Shown: one piece after another, positions 2,257 through 10,129 of the stretch
How positions within the stretch are numbered: the first letter of the stretch is position 1
How the letters are laid out: each line of letters begins with the position of its first letter
Origin: an uncultured Gammaproteobacteria bacterium
GTDB lineage: Bacteria; Pseudomonadota; Gammaproteobacteria; Steroidobacterales; Woeseiaceae
Length of the DNA: 24,000 nt
Reading direction: 5' to 3'
Assembly (NCBI GenBank): GCA_965365575.1
Contig: CBDUCE010000016.1
Location: 452 to 24,451 of the forward strand
Position numbers and translations under genes: made by a program
The notes under the pieces: model-generated
Database searches by the model: none
Told to the model about the DNA's origin: nothing
Seen by the model: only the letters and a program-made list of their open reading frames with translations

Positions 2257-3822
2257 CTAGTGGCCGCCGCCTCCTCCGGTTACCCGGACGTTGCTGACCG
2301 CTGATACCGCGTTGTTACCCATGTAGGGATCCTCAGTCCCAGCCGCCGGCTCGACCACCGCTGTCCACGTGATCTTGGCGGATTCATGCGGCTCGCCGAT
2401 GGTGAAGTAGACCGTGCCCGTGCTGAAACTCAGGCCCGGCACGATTCCGTCGAACTCCCACACGAACGGGCCAGGCAGACCATCGACGAGGACGTCCCCA
2501 CCGGCATCCGTATTGGCGGTGACGGTGAGTATGCCCGCTGCCGTATCCGGTCCGGCATTCGCGACGGTAACCACGAACTCGCGGCCTTCCGTCGTCGCGA
2601 CGACCTGTTTCGGCACCTTCAGCCCGGACTTCGCGCTAATCGAGAGGTCAAACTCGTCGGTCGGGTCCGGTAATGGCGTGCACGGAACCGGGGTCTTGTC
2701 GGCGTCCGGAACGGCATACGTATGCATGAAGTGAATGACTTCACGCGTATCGTCGGCCGCTTCCGCGAAACCGCCGATATTGCCGCCGGAATAGCCGGGA
2801 TCGTCCAGGAACACAGCGGTCATTATTGGTCCAACGACGGCCTGGTATGATCCGCCTCCCAGATCCTGCAGGAACTCGAACATGCCGGTTTGTGGTACGT
2901 CCGGGGGTGGCGGGAGATACGCCGGCGACGGCAGTCCTGCCGGAGCCGCTCCGGCGAAGTTCGTCTGCCGGTCATAGTAGTAACCGGTGGCCGTACCGTC
3001 GGCGAGGCGAGTGTAGTCCAGGAACCATTTCTTGACGACCTCAATGTTACCCATCACTTCCATCTTGATATCTTTATCCACCTTGAATAGATAGGTATCG
3101 ACATTGGGATCAGTCAGTCCCATGATCTGGTTCAGGTAGACGAGCAGGTCGATGTTCACCTGGCCCGCCTTGTCCATCGCAACGCCGAAGCCCCTGGCGG
3201 CAGTTTCGAGTACGCCCGCACCTTGCGGCAGCGGCACGCCGATCTGGCCGTCCAGCATCAGGTACTTGTAAACCGCGAGGTTCTGCAGCGGCGAATCGAT
3301 CGTGCTGGTTACCAGCACATCGCCGACGTAGCGGCTGTAAACCATCCGGCCTGCCGCATCCAGCGATGTGCAGTCGGCAATCGCGAGGTTCACCAGCACG
3401 TCCTGAAGCTGCGATGCCAGGACTCTGTCCGAGGCACGCGACAGGTTGACGCGGCCGAAGTCCGCCTCTTCAACGCAGGTCGCGAATTCCGGCTCGATCG
3501 CACAGGTTGCCGGATCGGTCGGAACGAGCCAAACCTCGTCGATGTCATTCCAAATCAGGTCATCGGCAGGGCAGCCAACGTTTGCGGGAAAGCCGATCGG
3601 TTGCTGGCACATAGCAGCGTCTGTAATGGGCACGCCGCCTGCATCCCTGTAGAGGATGACAAGGTCGCCGTAGTCCGGTGGCTCGGGCGTTCCGCCACCG
3701 CCACCACCTCCGCCGCCCCCGCCGCCGCCACCGCCGCGTCCCTGGGCGAGCGTATCGCCGCTCAGGCCGACGGCGCCGACTGCGAGCGCGCCGAGTAATG
3801 TAAGAAGCAGTCTGGTCTTCAT
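2257..3822 (-). CDS. Secreted hypothetical protein with an N-terminal poly-glycine tract and a C-terminal CARDB/DUF11-like beta-sandwich domain
   Basis: I prefer ATG at 3822 (MKTRLLL...) over the track's GTG at 3831, because AGGAGG (3831-3836) sits 8 nt upstream of 3822. Signal peptide ends ...LSGDTLAQG. G15 run. C-terminal about 130 aa (REFVVTVANAGPDTAAG...GNNAVSAVSNVRV) resembles CARDB/DUF11 repeats. Ends GGGGGH. Confidence 0.85.
   Translation of the reverse strand: MKTRLLLTLLGALAVGAVGLSGDTLAQGRGGGGGGGGGGGGGGGTPEPPDYGDLVILYRDAGGVPITDAAMCQQPIGFPANVGCPADDLIWNDIDEVWLVPTDPATCAIEPEFATCVEEADFGRVNLSRASDRVLASQLQDVLVNLAIADCTSLDAAGRMVYSRYVGDVLVTSTIDSPLQNLAVYKYLMLDGQIGVPLPQGAGVLETAARGFGVAMDKAGQVNIDLLVYLNQIMGLTDPNVDTYLFKVDKDIKMEVMGNIEVVKKWFLDYTRLADGTATGYYYDRQTNFAGAAPAGLPSPAYLPPPPDVPQTGMFEFLQDLGGGSYQAVVGPIMTAVFLDDPGYSGGNIGGFAEAADDTREVIHFMHTYAVPDADKTPVPCTPLPDPTDEFDLSISAKSGLKVPKQVVATTEGREFVVTVANAGPDTAAGILTVTANTDAGGDVLVDGLPGPFVWEFDGIVPGLSFSTGTVYFTIGEPHESAKITWTAVVEPAAGTEDPYMGNNAVSAVSNVRVTGGGGGH
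3691..3735 (-). repeat. (GGN)15 triplet tract encoding 15 consecutive glycines
   Basis: Read directly on the minus strand: GGC GGT GGC GGC GGC GGG GGC GGC GGA GGT GGT GGC GGT GGC GGA, between Arg and Thr-Pro-Glu-Pro-Pro. Confidence 0.95.
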
Positions 3823-3900
3823 GATGTACACCTCCTTGAATTGGTGCTCAGTGGCTGAAGAGGTTGTATCTCGGCCACTGTAGGAAGCGTCACTCAGTCG

Positions 3901-3948
3901 TGTTTCCTACGTATTTCCGAACGGTGTGAAATTGTTACAGTGTGTTTC
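3901..3948 (+). promoter_or_regulatory. Copy A of a 48-nt conserved block (candidate OmpR-family operator / activator-dependent promoter)
   Basis: TGTTTCCtacGtATTTCCGAAcggtgTGAAaTTGTTACAGtgTGTTTC. 38/48 identical, ungapped, to 7671-7718. GTGTTTCCTA is repeated exactly 42 nt apart (3900-3909 and 3942-3951). Contains an extended -10-like TGtTACAGT (3933-3941). Confidence 0.55.
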
Positions 3949-3950
3949 CT

Positions 3951-4688
3951 ATGGACGCTGGACGACGTGACACTCACGCCAGCGATTCACATCTGCTGGT
4001 CGTAGACGACGACGAGGAAACTCGCGACCTCCTGTCGCTTTACCTGGGGCAGCAGGGATTCGACGTTGCCGTCGTCGAGGACGGCAAGACGATGGACGCC
4101 TGGCTCGCCGATAATTCGACAGACCTGGTCATACTCGACCTGATGCTGCCCGGCGAGGACGGCCTGTCTATCGCCAGGCGCCTGCAGAGCGACCACAAGC
4201 TGCCCATCGTGATGATCTCGGCCCGCGGCGAAGAACTCGACCGCATCGTCGGACTCGAGGTCGGTGCCGATGACTACCTGCCCAAGCCCTTCAACCCCAG
4301 GGAGCTTCTGGCGCGCATCCGGGCGGTTTTGCGCCGCAGCAGTCCCTCTGCCGGGCCCCACCCGGACCAAGGTACGGGCCATGAGTTTGGCGAATTTCGG
4401 TTTGACGGTGAACGGCGCGTTCTCTACCGCGGCACCGCTGAGGTGGATCTTTCGAAGGCGGAGTTCGACCTCCTGCAGGTGTTCGTCAGTCACCCTAACC
4501 GGGTGCTCAGCAGGGACCTGATCATGGACTGCCTGAGTGGCGGCGACCGGGACCCCTTCGACCGCAGCATCGACGTGCGGGTTACACGCCTGAGACACAA
4601 GATGGAAGACGACCCGTCCAACCCGAAGCTCATCAGGACGGTCTGGGGCATCGGCTACCAGTTCACCCCCAAAGGGGACGTGCCATGA
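3951..4688 (+). CDS. ompR: OmpR-family response regulator (receiver domain plus winged-helix)
   Basis: Close similarity by eye to E. coli OmpR across the whole length (LVILDLMLPGEDGLSI, RIVGLEVGADDYLPKPFNPRELLARIRAVLRR, RSIDVRVTRLR, TVWGIGYQF). The start is ATG 3951 or GTG 3942; neither has a Shine-Dalgarno. The stop overlaps the kinase start (ATGA). The orthologue-level symbol is an inference. Confidence 0.9.
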   Translation: MDAGRRDTHASDSHLLVVDDDEETRDLLSLYLGQQGFDVAVVEDGKTMDAWLADNSTDLVILDLMLPGEDGLSIARRLQSDHKLPIVMISARGEELDRIVGLEVGADDYLPKPFNPRELLARIRAVLRRSSPSAGPHPDQGTGHEFGEFRFDGERRVLYRGTAEVDLSKAEFDLLQVFVSHPNRVLSRDLIMDCLSGGDRDPFDRSIDVRVTRLRHKMEDDPSNPKLIRTVWGIGYQFTPKGDVP

Positions 4689-6136
4689 CTCTCTATCCGC
4701 GCTCGTTGCTCGGACGCACGGCGATCACCATCGCACTCACGCTGCTCGCTTTCATGGCGATATCCATGACTGCCGCCGTGTACTTCGTCTACAACCCGAT
4801 GGCTAAACGACATGCAGAGGATTTCGCCGGGATTATCGTCGCGGCGGCTCATTCGTTGCAGAGCCTGCCCGTAGACATGCACGCGGAACTGAAAGACCGG
4901 TTGCTGCAGGACCATGGCTTGATCGTTGCCGAACAACCCTTCGAATCGTTCGAAACCACATCAAACCTGCCGTTCTACCCGTTTTTTCACGAGGCGCTCC
5001 ATGAGCAGGCGGGTGAGGACCTGCGCATCGTCGAATCGGCGGACAGCCCGATCATCTGGGTGGACGTGCCGGCCCACGGCAAAATCTACAGGCTGGGCTT
5101 CGACAAGCAACGGCTCGGAATCAATCCGCCCGTTGTGCTGATCCTCGCAATCTGCGTCGGTGCATTGCTTACCCTGCTCGCGAGTCTGTTCGAAGTACGC
5201 AGGGTCGTCCGACCCCTCGATCGATTATCGCTGGCGGTGAAAAAGCTCGCGCGTGGAGGAAACCCGCCGCGGATCCTCGAAGAGGGTCCCGAGGAGATTG
5301 TCAGCCTTGCGAGGACATTCAACCGGATGTCGTCCGACCTGCAGCAACTCTCGGAAAACCGCACGGTGATGATCGCCGGCATTTCGCACGATCTTCGCAC
5401 CCCGCTGACCCGCCTCGGTCTCGCAGTCGAGATGCTGGACCAGGACTCGAACCCCGAACTGGTCGAGCGAATCCGCCACAACCTGGACACGATGAACAGC
5501 CTGATTGGGCAATTCCTGCAATTTTCGCGGGGCGTCGATGGCGAGTGCCCTGTCCAGTTGGACCTCTGGCAGGTGATCGAATCGCTGGCCGCCGATCTGA
5601 AACTCGAAGGGTCCGAGCTGAATTTGCACCGCAACGACCCGCCTTGCGTGTATTTCGCCGACGCGGTCGCCCTCGAACGGGTGCTGGCGAACCTGCTGAA
5701 GAACGCGGCGCAGCACGGAAATGGCAACCCCATCGACGTCGAGCTGCACTGTACCGACGACGCGGTCGCTATCGAGATATGCGATCGTGGCCCCGGCATT
5801 CCACACGATGAGTTGCAGGCCGTGTTTCGACCGTTCCATCGCGTCGGGGAGGCTCGCAGCCAGTCGCCCGGGGGCAGCGGTCTCGGCCTTGCAATTGCCA
5901 ATCAGCTCGCGCTGAAACACGGCTGGACGATACAGTTGCTCCCACGTGACGGCGGCGGGACGGTAGCCAGGCTCTCCCTGCCACCAGGTCAGCGCTTCGG
6001 ACTGTGTGGATCGTCAGCGCAGCGCCGGCAGAAAACGTTTGACGTGCAAACCGGCACCCCAGTCAGCGCCGCTGTCGGTAAGTCCTTTGAAGGCAAACAG
6101 CTGCAGACGCCAGTCGGCACTGAGCCGGTTCGATAG
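4685..6136 (+). CDS. envZ: EnvZ-like sensor histidine kinase (2 TM, periplasmic loop, HAMP, HisKA, HATPase)
   Basis: H-box GISHDLRTPLTRLGLAVEML. N-box NLLKNAAQHGNG. G-boxes DRGPGI and GGSGLGLAI. Translationally coupled to the regulator gene. The recognisable HATPase domain ends near 5986. The last 49 aa form an unconserved-looking tail that overlaps the convergent OMP gene. Confidence 0.88.
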   Translation: MTLYPRSLLGRTAITIALTLLAFMAISMTAAVYFVYNPMAKRHAEDFAGIIVAAAHSLQSLPVDMHAELKDRLLQDHGLIVAEQPFESFETTSNLPFYPFFHEALHEQAGEDLRIVESADSPIIWVDVPAHGKIYRLGFDKQRLGINPPVVLILAICVGALLTLLASLFEVRRVVRPLDRLSLAVKKLARGGNPPRILEEGPEEIVSLARTFNRMSSDLQQLSENRTVMIAGISHDLRTPLTRLGLAVEMLDQDSNPELVERIRHNLDTMNSLIGQFLQFSRGVDGECPVQLDLWQVIESLAADLKLEGSELNLHRNDPPCVYFADAVALERVLANLLKNAAQHGNGNPIDVELHCTDDAVAIEICDRGPGIPHDELQAVFRPFHRVGEARSQSPGGSGLGLAIANQLALKHGWTIQLLPRDGGGTVARLSLPPGQRFGLCGSSAQRRQKTFDVQTGTPVSAAVGKSFEGKQLQTPVGTEPVR

Positions 6137-6805
6137 GAACAAGCTGAGTTCCTGCGTCGGGTCCGCGCCTATCGACGACTCGCGGTAGTCGAAAAACATG
6201 CCGAGCCTTGCGTCGCGGGTGGCCTTGTAAATGCCGCCGGCGGAAGCCAGGAAGGCATCGTCGAGCACGGTGCCGGGCGGCTGGCCGCGGAACTTATGGC
6301 CGATCGAACCGATCCAGGTAAACCGATCCGCGAACTTGAGGAAATCTGCCTGCACCGTGAAATCATTCTCGCCGGTACCGAGCCCGTTTTCGACGTCGGC
6401 CGTTCCGAACTTGACCTTGCCGGTGAGATCCATGGCGAACCCCAGGCGCCGATTTCGGATAACGTCAAGGACCGTGACGCTGGCGATCACATCACCTATG
6501 CCGCTGTTGGTAACGATTTCGCCGGTGCCGGGGATCGGTTCGCCCCCCGGGCCCGTCACTACCGTTCCCTCGGGTGCCCTGACGCTGAGGTAGGGCACGG
6601 TAAGTCGGAATGAAAGGCGCCTGTAATCGATCGTCGCCTTGAGTGGCACGTAGAAGTCCTCGATGGCTTGATCACCGCCGTAGGTGCCCGTCGTGTATTC
6701 CGCGCCGGCCGCGAGTGTGAGTCGGGGCTTTTCGTCTTCCGCCACCGCCACGCTTAAAAGCAGAATCAGGCAGCCGAGCAATGAACTTGTCTGCACTCGC
6801 TTCAT
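6014..6805 (-). CDS. Small outer-membrane beta-barrel protein (resembles the 'MetA-pathway of phenol degradation' / transporter OMP family)
   Basis: Signal peptide MKRVQTSSLLGCLILLLSVAVA/ED. Alternating amphipathic strands. An early YTTGTYGG motif. Near-C-terminal ...GAGLHVKRF followed by LPALR. The family assignment is from memory only. Confidence 0.75.
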   Translation of the reverse strand: MKRVQTSSLLGCLILLLSVAVAEDEKPRLTLAAGAEYTTGTYGGDQAIEDFYVPLKATIDYRRLSFRLTVPYLSVRAPEGTVVTGPGGEPIPGTGEIVTNSGIGDVIASVTVLDVIRNRRLGFAMDLTGKVKFGTADVENGLGTGENDFTVQADFLKFADRFTWIGSIGHKFRGQPPGTVLDDAFLASAGGIYKATRDARLGMFFDYRESSIGADPTQELSLFLSNRLSADWRLQLFAFKGLTDSGADWGAGLHVKRFLPALR

Positions 6806-6824
6806 GCTGGTCTCCCTGGAAAAG

Positions 6825-6849
6825 GGGGGCCGGACAATTACCGGCCCCC
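6825..6849 (-). terminator. Rho-independent terminator-like hairpin between the DR-repeat protein gene and the OMP gene
   Basis: On the minus strand: GGGGGCCGG, loop TAATTGT, CCGGCCCCC, then CTTTTCC. The U-tract abuts the OMP RBS (AGGGAGA, 6811-6817) and the ATG at 6805. Confidence 0.6.
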
Positions 6850-6881
6850 AATCAGGAGGTCACCGAATACGGGGGACGGGG

Positions 6882-7562
6882 TTATTCGGCTTCCTCGATA
6901 TCGAGCTCAAGGGCTTTTGCCCGCAGCTCCATCTGCTCACGATGCTGCGCCCGGAACTTCTCGACTTCGTCTTCCGAGTCCATTTGGCGCAGCTGCTCGC
7001 GGTACTCATTGCGCTCCTGCACGGTCATCAACTCGCCGCCGTAGACGGGCCCCTGGCCCGGAGGCACGAGGTCTTTGCCCTGCAATTGCGCGCGCTCCTG
7101 CATTTTTGCCTCATGCCTGGTCTGGTGCTGCTCGCGAGCCTCGACGGTCTCCATGTTCACGAGCTGATTGCGATATTGCCTCAGCTCCTCTTCGGACATC
7201 AGCGCACTACCGTAGATGTCTTCGTCTCTCAGGCTTGCCGGATCGGTCACGTGGAGGCGGTCACGATCCTGAACACGATCCCGGTCCTGGTCATGTCCGC
7301 TGGCCTGGTCTCGATCCCGGTCTCGATCCCGGTCCATGGAATCGGTGGTGGTGTAGTCCCGGGTACGATCCCGGTCCTGGTCCATGTCACGGTCGTAGGT
7401 CTGGTCGCGGTCCATATCGCGGTCGTAGTCACGATCCTGGTCCATTTGCTGGTCGCGATCGCCGCTGCCACCGCCGCCCTGCCCCTGTTGGGCATCAGCG
7501 GTCAGGAAGGTGATTGCCAGCATCGACGCCAGGATGATGCTGATGGAAAGTTTGTGTCTCAT
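6882..7562 (-). CDS. Periplasmic/secreted protein with an Asp-Arg dipeptide-repeat region and a duplicated helical YGxxLM[ST]xxExxxYRxQL module
   Basis: ATG 7562 with a GGAGG RBS. Signal peptide ...AITFLTADA/QQ. The sequence runs GGGGSG, then about 68 aa of DRD/DQD/DMD repeats, then two ~47-aa paralogous segments. No family name recalled with certainty. Confidence 0.85.
   Translation of the reverse strand: MRHKLSISIILASMLAITFLTADAQQGQGGGGSGDRDQQMDQDRDYDRDMDRDQTYDRDMDQDRDRTRDYTTTDSMDRDRDRDRDQASGHDQDRDRVQDRDRLHVTDPASLRDEDIYGSALMSEEELRQYRNQLVNMETVEAREQHQTRHEAKMQERAQLQGKDLVPPGQGPVYGGELMTVQERNEYREQLRQMDSEDEVEKFRAQHREQMELRAKALELDIEEAE
7257..7460 (-). repeat. Cryptic tandem repeat DNA encoding the (D-R/D-x-D) low-complexity region
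   Basis: GATCCCGGTC occurs four times and CTGGTCCAT recurs on the plus strand. The region translates to DRDQQMDQDRDYDRDMDRDQTYDRDMDQDRDRTRD...DRDRDRDRD...DQDRDRVQDRDR. The repeats also create long shadow ORFs in other frames. Confidence 0.9.
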
Positions 7563-7670
7563 TTGTCGATCCTCCGTTAATCACTCGTGCTCCCCGTCGC
7601 TCTCTCCAGGCTCTTTTGTGGCAGTATCGAATGGAGATCGCCGACCCACGATAGAAATGTGCCGCGAAGA

Positions 7671-7718
7671 TGTTTCCGGCGAATTTCCGAATTGCCTGAA
7701 TTTGTTACAGACTGTTTC
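7671..7718 (+). promoter_or_regulatory. Copy B of the 48-nt conserved block
   Basis: TGTTTCCggcGaATTTCCGAAttgccTGAAtTTGTTACAGacTGTTTC. 38/48 identical to 3901-3948 in the same orientation. It ends 5 nt before the ATG at 7724. It lies in the divergent region between the DR-repeat gene and the kinase gene. Confidence 0.55.
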
Positions 7719-7723
7719 GCGCG

Positions 7724-8785
7724 ATGACCAATGCACAGCCTGCAGACGCTTTTACCTTGCTAACGACAAGCCCTCCGGCCCTGTCCGAAGCGCATGCGGC
7801 GAAACTGCTCCGGGAGCATTACGGCCTGGAGGGAATACTCGAATCACAGGACAGCGAACGCGACCAGAACTACCTGCTGCGAACAACGCCGGCGGACAAG
7901 TACGTTCTGAAGATTGCGAATTCCGCCGAGATCGAACCAATCACGGACTTCCAGATAGCCGCTTTGCTGCACCTGGAGAATTCGCCGGTCGCCGGACTGG
8001 TGCCGCGCGTCATTCGAACCGTGGACGGACACACACGGATCCGGGTTTCGGCAGATAGTGGACATGCTCATAGCGCCCGCGTGCTGAGCTGGCTGCCCGG
8101 CGTTATGCGCCGGCCGGACGAACTCAACCCGATCGCTCTCTACCGCATGGGCGAGACACTCGCATCGCTCGGCAAGGCGCTCCGCGATTTCGAACACCCC
8201 GCGAGCGACTACCCCCTGCTCTGGGACATCAAGCAGGCGGAGCGCCTGCGTGACCTGCTTGACACGGTTACCGACACGGCGTTGCGCGATGTCCTCCGTG
8301 AGCACATCGACACATTCGCAGAGGTGGTCTCGCCACGGTTGCCAGCGCTGCGCTGGCAGGTCATTCACAACGACCTGAACCCTGGCAACGTACTCTTCGA
8401 CCCCCGTGACGATCGCAAGGTAGCGGGCATCATCGACTTCGGCGATATGATCGACTCGCCACTCGTCGTCGACGCGGCGGTAGCATCGGCCTATCTTTGC
8501 CGCAGGAACGATGGTTCGCTTGCCGACATGCTCGAGTTCCTGCGCGGTTATAACGCGGTTGCACCGCTCACGGCAGACGAGTTCGCGCTCCTGCCGTACC
8601 TCATCACGATCCGCAGCGTGACTACCCTGGTCATTTCGCACTGGCGCGCGTCGATGTATCCTGACAATCAGGCTTACATCCTGCGTAGCGCGGCTCGTGC
8701 GCTGCATATGCTTAAGACATTCGGGCGAAGGCCGCCAACCGCGGTCACGCGTGAGATGCAGGAACACTGTGGAAACCAAGACTGA
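7724..8785 (+). CDS. APH-fold small-molecule kinase (homoserine kinase type II / hydroxylysine-kinase-like phosphotransferase)
   Basis: N-terminal ...LSEAHAAKLLREHYGL...SERDQNYLL. Catalytic loop VIHNDLNPGNVLF. Metal-binding IIDFGDM. No SD upstream of ATG 7724. Confidence 0.85.
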   Translation: MTNAQPADAFTLLTTSPPALSEAHAAKLLREHYGLEGILESQDSERDQNYLLRTTPADKYVLKIANSAEIEPITDFQIAALLHLENSPVAGLVPRVIRTVDGHTRIRVSADSGHAHSARVLSWLPGVMRRPDELNPIALYRMGETLASLGKALRDFEHPASDYPLLWDIKQAERLRDLLDTVTDTALRDVLREHIDTFAEVVSPRLPALRWQVIHNDLNPGNVLFDPRDDRKVAGIIDFGDMIDSPLVVDAAVASAYLCRRNDGSLADMLEFLRGYNAVAPLTADEFALLPYLITIRSVTTLVISHWRASMYPDNQAYILRSAARALHMLKTFGRRPPTAVTREMQEHCGNQD

Positions 8786-8995
8786 CGATTTGCTCGGGCG
8801 TCGCGACAAGCTGCTCGGGCCGGCCTACCGGCTGAACTACGACGATCCGGTGCATCCCGTTCGCGGCGAAGGTGTGTGGCTGCACGATGCGACCGGGCGC
8901 AAGTACCTCGACATTTACAACACCCTGCCGCGCGGCGGCGCCCTGGCGCGATCGGGCGCGATCGACCCTGACCAAAACATCCTGAAACTGCGCGC

Positions 8996-8999
<4 letters not shown>
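8769..8999 (+). pseudogene. Remnant of a class-III (AGXT2L/phospholyase-type) aminotransferase gene with most of the body deleted
   Basis: GTG 8769 overlaps the kinase 3' end. The first ~50 aa (TDDLLGRRDKLLGPAYRLNYDDPVHPVRGEGVWLHDATGRKYLDIYN) match the conserved N-terminus of this family. Similarity stops where NVPHVGH would be expected. The ORF ends after 76 aa with ...DPDQNILKLRA, which resembles the family's C-terminal G..NxLKxxPPL motif. Confidence 0.6.

Positions 9000-10125
<1,126 letters not shown>

Positions 10126-10129
<4 letters not shown>

Follow-up and report, generated by a model that had tools for sequence, protein, structure and literature searches.

A twice-occurring 48-bp block as the probable regulatory module of an OmpR/EnvZ-like system in Woeseiaceae

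Why should a 48-bp sequence occur twice within a few kilobases, once directly against the start codon of a response regulator gene and once in front of a second set of genes? The stretch of DNA that raises this question, called the window here, is 24,000 nucleotides long (C16:452-24451 of an assembly of 3.23 Mb in 367 contigs, 62% GC and 89% complete). It belongs to the Woeseiaceae, abundant sediment bacteria that are mostly uncultured, and a literature search for two-component systems of this family found nothing relevant. A preliminary description read the block as a phased array of binding sites for the adjacent OmpR-like regulator. We believe this is probably right at its core. On the comparative evidence, the block is likely a composite cis-regulatory module, an operator joined with core-promoter determinants, belonging to the OmpR/EnvZ-like system that lies next to its first copy. 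A phased direct-repeat operator for an autoregulated OmpR-family regulator is a textbook kind of element, so the argument turns on how the block is built, where else it occurs and which genes lie on its two sides.

The two copies and the genes around them

The two blocks and their neighbours are laid out in the window as follows.

2257-3822, minus strand: exported protein with a poly-Gly tract and a weak DUF11 match, divergent from block A
3901-3948, plus strand: block A, with boxes TGTTTC (3901-3906), ATTTCC (3913-3918), TGTTAC (3933-3938) and TGTTTC (3943-3948)
3951-4688, plus strand: OmpR-family response regulator (RR), receiver and winged helix (Pfam PF00072 and PF00486)
4685-6136, plus strand: EnvZ-like sensor histidine kinase (HK), with HAMP, HisKA and HATPase_c domains
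6014-6805, minus strand: 263-aa exported protein with a signal peptide, resembling an outer membrane (OM) beta-barrel; second gene of the block B operon
6882-7562, minus strand: 226-aa exported acidic protein with Asp-Arg repeats; first gene divergent from block B
7671-7718, plus strand: block B, with boxes at 7671-7676, 7683-7688, 7703-7708 and 7713-7718
7724-8785, plus strand: APH-family kinase, its ATG 5 nt past block B and without a Shine-Dalgarno sequence (SD); MtnA follows

The RR start codon lies 2 nt past block A with no SD. The HK start overlaps the RR stop codon (ATGA), and the two genes are translationally coupled. The best NCBIfam match of RR is OmpR, with 280.5 bits against a cut-off of 331, and that of HK is EnvZ, with 240.7 bits against a cut-off of 415. 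Because both fall below the equivalog cut-offs we treat them as OmpR/EnvZ-like paralogues and not as equivalogs; neither reaches the thresholds that would place it in the OmpR regulon proper. A sequence search of the PDB with RR returned generic OmpR-family relatives alone (RegX3, MtrA, BaeR), and no OmpR-DNA complex for a comparison of recognition helices was among the results.

On the minus strand, the open reading frame at 2257-3831 would give 524 aa from a GTG at 3831, and the likely start is the ATG at 3822, which has the SD AAGGAGG. This poly-Gly/DUF11 gene is followed by one for a 569-aa exported repeat protein (458-2167). For the acidic-protein gene the SD is GGAGGA, and 108 nt separate its start from box 1 of block B. 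Its partner, the 263-aa barrel-like protein, has zero Pfam or NCBIfam matches, and the synteny of its gene is kept in about 20 genomes. The 3' ends of the HK and barrel genes, on plus and minus strand respectively, overlap convergently by about 120 nt (6014-6136). In close relatives this overlap is about 115 nt (at locus L051 HK runs to 6012 and the barrel from 5896), and in more distant ones the kinase match ends at about residue 437-440. The APH kinase is a variable plus-side neighbour, not conserved beside block B in other genomes. MtnA (8996-10129) lies 210 nt past the APH gene and has no recognisable SD (8971-8998; upstream catcctgaaactgcgcgc).

Box architecture and distribution among relatives

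The preliminary description had set 3901-3948 against 7671-7718 and counted 38 identities in 48 without a gap. This holds, and it is far from chance: over 300 shuffles of both intergenic regions the best ungapped 48-nt match was 23.1 +/- 1.3, with a maximum of 27. The ten mismatches between A and B (block positions 8, 9, 12, 22, 23, 25, 26, 31, 41 and 42) are confined to spacer positions. The outer TGTTTC boxes occupy block positions 1-6 and 43-48 in both copies and are 42 bp apart, as had been claimed, and the perfect 10-mer repeat described for copy A is also there (GTGTTTCCTA at 3900-3909 and again at 3942-3951).

The same description proposed a weight-matrix (PWM) search of the full genome and held that a dispersed REP-like repeat would overturn its reading. 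A PWM trained solely on foreign copies (n=67) picks out two sites in this genome, copy B at 67.9 bits and copy A at 67.4, with the next best site at 4.5. Elsewhere in the 3.23-Mb assembly, on both strands, no site has more than 24 of the 38 shared positions. Since there are two copies, both far above background, the block is not a dispersed REP-like repeat. The wider form of this idea, in which the block is a REP- or MITE-like repeat or is left over from a segmental duplication, without any regulatory role, we find hardly credible. It can point to more than one copy per genome, up to four in one relative (G046). However, the two copies here and the one to four elsewhere sit in promoter regions, nearly all by exported-protein genes, and not in large numbers at unrelated loci. 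There are no terminal inverted repeats, the flanks of A and B are unrelated, and mismatches fall solely in spacers while the conservation reaches across families.

PWMs for the half-blocks (boxes 1-2 and boxes 3-4) gave few matches of at least about 20 bits in the whole genome, mostly within long ORFs. These matches look like chance, and the half-block search of the 89%-complete assembly found no further regulon members. One two-box look-alike on another contig (G000:C307:1219-1245) reads AATTTTTACAAATTGTTATATTTTCC, followed directly by the ATG of an ORF that is not a regulator; it scores 21.9 bits on the PWM for boxes 3-4.

Both blocks consist of four direct-repeat boxes in the same orientation. 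When 66 distinct copies from related Woeseiaceae and neighbouring families are aligned with their flanks, the conserved boxes are TGTTTC at positions 1-6, ATTTCC at 13-18, TTGTTACA at 31-39 and TGTTTC(C) at 43-49, with a weaker conserved GAA at 19-21. The four boxes carry close to the maximum information and the spacers almost none, and this footprint is seen across the genus and three further families. Phylogenetic footprinting, which had also been proposed, has therefore come out in favour of an operator: near-invariant boxes and free spacers in orthologous promoter regions. The boxes are stepped by 11, 21 and 10 bp (start to start 11-12, 20-21 and 10) in both window copies and in the 66 foreign ones, which would put all four on one helical face. 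Again this is operator-like, with at least two half-sites of 5-7 bp in the same orientation at 10-11 bp or multiples of it.

The earlier picture of inner boxes at roughly 10-11-bp steps survives in part. ATTTCC at 13-18 and TGTTAC at 33-38 are real boxes, but the slot at about 22-23 is not conserved and must be counted as empty. Judged from the alignment, the array is two pairs of boxes and not five evenly spaced ones. A candidate fifth box at -15 to -10 was rejected, as it lies 15 bp from box 1 and out of phase. There is an invariant A-N3-T 10 nt before box 1: A(-15) and T(-11), numbered relative to the block, are invariant in 65 of the 66 distinct copies and are also present in all 7 copies from other genera and families. 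Within the block, A39 and T43 are invariant in the 66-copy alignment.

We next ask whether the block travels with the regulator. Genomes were searched with a degenerate four-box pattern allowing up to 2 mismatches, with the reversed pattern as control. The block occurs in 36 of 154 genomes of the genus, mostly as same-strand pairs 2.3-3.8 kb apart, and the control gave 0 hits. In a sample of the order 21 of 401 genomes match the pattern, again with 0 control hits, and there are 7 credible matches outside the genus, in families f1, f4, f15 and f20. The layout is conserved in the roughly 20 loci examined: an exported-protein gene and RR-HK diverge from block A, the acidic-protein and OM-barrel genes run from block B back towards the kinase, and the far side of block B is variable.

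An independent protein search of the same 154 genomes, defining an RR orthologue by E<=1e-85 and at least 70% identity, found one in 32, and 32 of these 32 carry the block. None was found in the 118 block-negative genomes (0/118), among the best 17 candidates scored per genome, a depth at which a divergent orthologue could be missed. Four genomes have the block and no RR orthologue; in two of them the kinase gene is cut off at a contig edge, and the other two (G070 and G107) are MAGs 78-82% complete. This co-occurrence is partly trivial, since the block is physically linked to the RR-HK cassette, and it comes from genomes that are related and not independent. It is worth setting beside it that distant acidic-protein/OM-barrel operons without an adjacent two-component system have no block. 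A winged-helix regulator, presumably the cognate one, thus lies near the site and co-occurs with it, with G070, G107 and G347 as the exceptions.

G347, a single-contig genome from another family, has an intact block upstream of a poly-Gly/propeller pair, and a search at E<=1e-60 found no RR orthologue in it. The propeller protein there is 84% identical, across families, to that of the window, and the locus (L115, C1:2168000-2180000) was probably transferred recently. Since that identity suggests recent transfer, retention of the block in G347 is weak evidence. A masked (N) stretch adjoins the block there.

These exceptions bear on the main alternative, which is that the array is bound by a different OmpR-family regulator, or by both that one and RR in cross-talk. 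A candidate exists. A paralogue in the same genome (C67, 42% identity) has GTATC-N4-TGTTTC-N4-TGTTTC upstream of itself (G000:C67 ~4760-4900), with a TATGAT element and the start codon following about 55 nt further on, and a triple TGTWWC array also precedes its orthologues in many genomes of the genus. More generally, paralogous OmpR-family regulators of the genus have 3-4 TGTWWC repeats at 10-bp spacing upstream of their own genes. Because the array upstream of the C67 paralogue is of the block's half-site type, and at the same 10-bp spacing, cross-talk is possible, and three genomes (G347, G070 and G107) keep the block with no detectable RR orthologue. Nevertheless we consider this alternative unlikely. 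The paralogue is in nearly all genomes of the genus, whereas the 11/21/10 four-box block, in the genomes searched, is almost always accompanied by the cassette. Upstream of the paralogue itself the boxes are three and contiguous, and the block PWM gives them no score; G347 lends little support given its probable history. The reading of the block as an array for the adjacent OmpR-like regulator is the one that the genome scan, the footprint and the tracking of RR over 154 genomes support, with binding by RR as its predicted consequence.

Two genomes carry the arrangement in multiplied form. G046 (L051/L052, C124) has four blocks on one contig, one of them before a second poly-Gly paralogue and one before a gene for an 893-aa secreted protein. 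G136 (L058/L059, C4) has two complete RR-HK cassettes, each with its own block pair. From such loci the regulon seems to grow by duplication of a block together with a gene.

Candidate promoters on the two sides of the block

In nearly every copy examined, orphans included, a gene for an exported or membrane protein lies on the opposite strand 45-150 nt beyond box 1, usually with an SD. This pattern fails on the B side in G011, G134 and G069 and on the A side in G137. What the gene encodes varies. On the minus side of copy A it is, depending on the clade, the poly-Gly protein, a 112-120-aa EF-hand-pair protein or a DUF5666 lipoprotein; copy B has the acidic protein; and unlinked orphan copies have an 893-aa secreted protein, a 140-aa membrane protein or a 566-aa lipoprotein. 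In the EF-hand clade (L058-L068 and L104; for example G054, G136 and G070) the exported pair protein matches Pfam EF-hand_7 at 3e-10. Together with the Asp-Arg acidic proteins, the EF-hand pairs hint that the system handles Ca2+ or other divalent cations. In G011 (L057, C3 5770-5946) the acidic-protein/OM-barrel operon is missing and block B is kept. The minus side there consists of about 110 nt with no convincing ORF, ending in a good intrinsic terminator (GGGGCCGGTCCTGATCGGCCCC then T7), and this stretch could be a small RNA or a remnant.

The preliminary description had proposed that the regulator controls the second locus as well. This is sound insofar as block B is conserved upstream of the orthologous operon. 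The target, however, would be the minus-strand acidic-protein/OM-barrel operon and not the APH kinase. By the same reasoning copy A would also serve its divergent exported-protein gene. The candidate promoter elements on which this rests, together with one for the regulator gene, are these.

3886-3891, minus strand: candidate -10 GACGCT (nAnnnT), 9 nt from box 1 of block A and containing A(-15)/T(-11); putative role
7656-7661, minus strand: candidate -10 CACATT, 9 nt from box 1 of block B; putative role
3938-3943, plus strand: candidate weak -10 CAGTGT within boxes 3-4, containing the invariant A39 and T43; putative role

The first of these would read towards the 524-aa exported-protein gene and the second towards the acidic-protein/OM-barrel operon. 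On the minus strand the nAnnnT stands 9 nt after GAAACA and has the two critical bases of a -10 hexamer, though both proposed -10 elements lack the usual first T. Such an element at 9 nt from box 1 is what a Pho-box-type promoter would have, and it is there in 65 of 66 copies. Its strand is ambiguous, since A-N3-T is its own reverse complement and the direction cannot be read from sequence alone. A scan of 3700-8000 for consensus sigma-70 promoters and terminators found nothing, which fits activator-dependent promoters and gives them no positive support.

One could argue from these elements that the block is chiefly a core promoter working in both directions, with sigma-70 or an alternative sigma factor, that it is conserved for its contacts with RNA polymerase, and that it is not a response-regulator site. 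Both plus-side genes start within 2-5 nt of the block, nAnnnT-type elements stand at fixed positions on either side, and the minus-strand GGAAAC is loosely like ECF -35 motifs. We regard this as improbable. Four repeats in the same orientation at helical spacing are no promoter signature, no canonical -35/-10 pair was found, and the block is almost restricted to genomes with one two-component cassette. Furthermore, B-type copies keep boxes 3-4 even without a plus-side gene. What lies on the plus side of B-type and orphan copies varies or is missing altogether, so a plus-side promoter does not explain why the B-type ones conserve boxes 3-4. A specific ECF-sigma reading (GGAAAC-N16-TCnnA) was tried and rejected, its would-be -10 positions being unconserved.

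The plus side of the regulator copies is equally regular. All those inspected have an ATG or GTG 1-2 nt after box 4 (block position 50-51), and RR has no other in-frame start before the receiver domain. There is no purine-rich SD upstream of RR, in contrast to the strong SDs of the minus-strand genes next to it; in the clade of the window the APH gene likewise starts 5 nt past block B. Block positions 38-43 form a CAnnnT whose end lies 7 nt ahead of the RR ATG. If it works as a weak -10 within boxes 3-4, the RR mRNA would start at the ATG or 1 nt before it (3950-3951), and the predicted plus-strand start at block B would lie near 7720. A start 2 nt past box 4 without an SD makes a leaderless mRNA probable, and we take the RR mRNA to be probably leaderless or near-leaderless and autoregulated. 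One clade has a perfect plus-strand TATAAT about 30-37 nt upstream of block A, and there the RR mRNA could instead be leadered and contain the block. An extended -10 (TGnTACAGT) for the RR gene was rejected because it fits copy A alone and its last T is unconserved across copies.

Yet another explanation treats the block as an RNA signal, namely a conserved 5' leader or a small structured element in the RR/HK mRNAs. The block does abut two start codons, and being AU-rich in a 62% GC genome it could be an S1-dependent, SD-independent translation enhancer. We think this very unlikely. The block has no match in Rfam at E<=1, and copies A and B fold differently and weakly, with z-scores of -0.7 to -1.9. 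Neither a covariance-model match nor a covarying structure was found; the variable positions have no compensatory pattern and the conservation comes in discrete hexamers. In addition, many B-type and orphan copies have no plus-side gene. We return to DNA, and to the block as the putative operator of RR. The comparative evidence is unusually clear that it is most likely a four-box site and promoter module.

A proposed mechanism and its relation to known systems

The mechanism we propose is as follows. Phosphorylated RR would bind the half-sites TGTTTC, ATTTCC, TGTTAC and TGTTTC as two head-to-tail dimers on one face of the helix, as the half-site steps of 11, 21 and 10 bp suggest. On the opposite strand the nAnnnT 9 nt beyond box 1 would be the -10 of an activator-dependent promoter, with transcription starting about 7 nt past it, near 3879 for copy A and near 7649 for copy B. 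Boxes 1-2 would then lie at about -22 to -39, in place of a -35 element and much as in a Pho box, and boxes 3-4 at about -54 to -69 of the minus-strand start. The copy A promoter would drive the poly-Gly/DUF11 protein and the 569-aa repeat protein, and the copy B promoter the acidic Asp-Arg protein and the OM barrel. Through its occupancy the block would also set the level of RR itself. Seen from the plus-strand promoter, the dimer on boxes 1-2 would sit at about -40 and the dimer on boxes 3-4 over the -10. The binding, the promoter positions, the leaderless start and the sign of regulation are all inferred, and the expected autoregulation could be of either sign.

It is tempting to go further and join the two sides in a single reading, which we would call possible but doubtful. 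The block would then be a portable bidirectional promoter-operator cassette, one face recruiting the regulon on the minus strand and the other giving a leaderless, biphasically autoregulated RR. The activator-dependent face would recruit exported and possibly Ca2+-binding envelope proteins by duplication of block and gene together: the EF-hand pair protein, Asp-Arg acidic proteins, DUF5666 lipoproteins and poly-Gly proteins. On the other face a truly leaderless RR mRNA would start inside its own operator, and a dimer at about -40 would activate while one at about -10 would repress, a biphasic autoregulation like that of lambda PRM. If true, at least 40 uncultured gammaproteobacterial species would share this arrangement.

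Even the more modest reading of the block as a regulatory module of the OmpR/EnvZ-like system is of some consequence. It yields a precise predicted binding motif and a predicted regulon for an uncharacterised two-component system of the Woeseiaceae. That regulon would bring together exported proteins of unknown function (acidic, EF-hand, poly-Gly and OM-barrel) as one envelope module, which may respond to divalent cations or envelope stress. The block may also be a clean natural case of two divergent promoters relying on a single 48-bp module, with a leaderless mRNA probable from one of them. Leaderless mRNAs are uncommon in Gammaproteobacteria.

How does such a module compare with the systems already understood? 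The OmpR sites of E. coli at ompF and ompC (F1-F4, C1-C3) are tandem half-sites of the GTTACA/GAAACA kind spaced by about 10 bp, in helical phase, and are bound by head-to-tail dimers. The block is like them in having phased tandem half-sites beside an OmpR-type regulator with an OM barrel among its predicted targets. Unlike OmpR, RR is below the equivalog cut-off and its system is found in about a fifth of the genus. OmpR has three contiguous 20-bp sites, whereas the block has four boxes in two pairs with one empty slot. Its array also reaches to 9 nt from the candidate -10, and the RR gene abuts it, neither of which is the case for OmpR sites.

The Pho box of PhoB consists of two tandem half-sites at 11-bp spacing that end about 10 bp upstream of a -10, with no recognisable -35. 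Boxes 2-1 and the nAnnnT of the minus strand resemble this class II arrangement, and a second, upstream pair is present as at pstS. The half-site is nevertheless TGTTTC and not CTGTCAT, it reads away from the minus-strand promoter and may thus have the opposite orientation, and the upstream pair of the block is set off by one missing slot.

Two further systems are analogies of architecture only, and we imply no homology with either. At cpxP-cpxRA a divergent promoter region is common to a two-component operon and an exported accessory protein, and in lambda the cI mRNA from PRM is a leaderless regulator mRNA that starts beside its own operators.

A further comparison is with the tor boxes, four decameric direct repeats of the TGTTCA type in the divergent intergenic region between torR and torCAD, one of them of lower affinity (PMC9239176). 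TorR differs from RR in regulator subfamily, box sequence and spacing; moreover, the block recurs at a second locus and at others, and the RR start codon comes straight after the last box. For the tor boxes a division of labour has reportedly been described (Ansaldi et al. 2000), the torR-proximal boxes serving negative autoregulation and the others activating torC. What the block and the tor boxes have in common is the overall plan of four direct repeats in a divergent region, placed between a regulator gene and a target operon.
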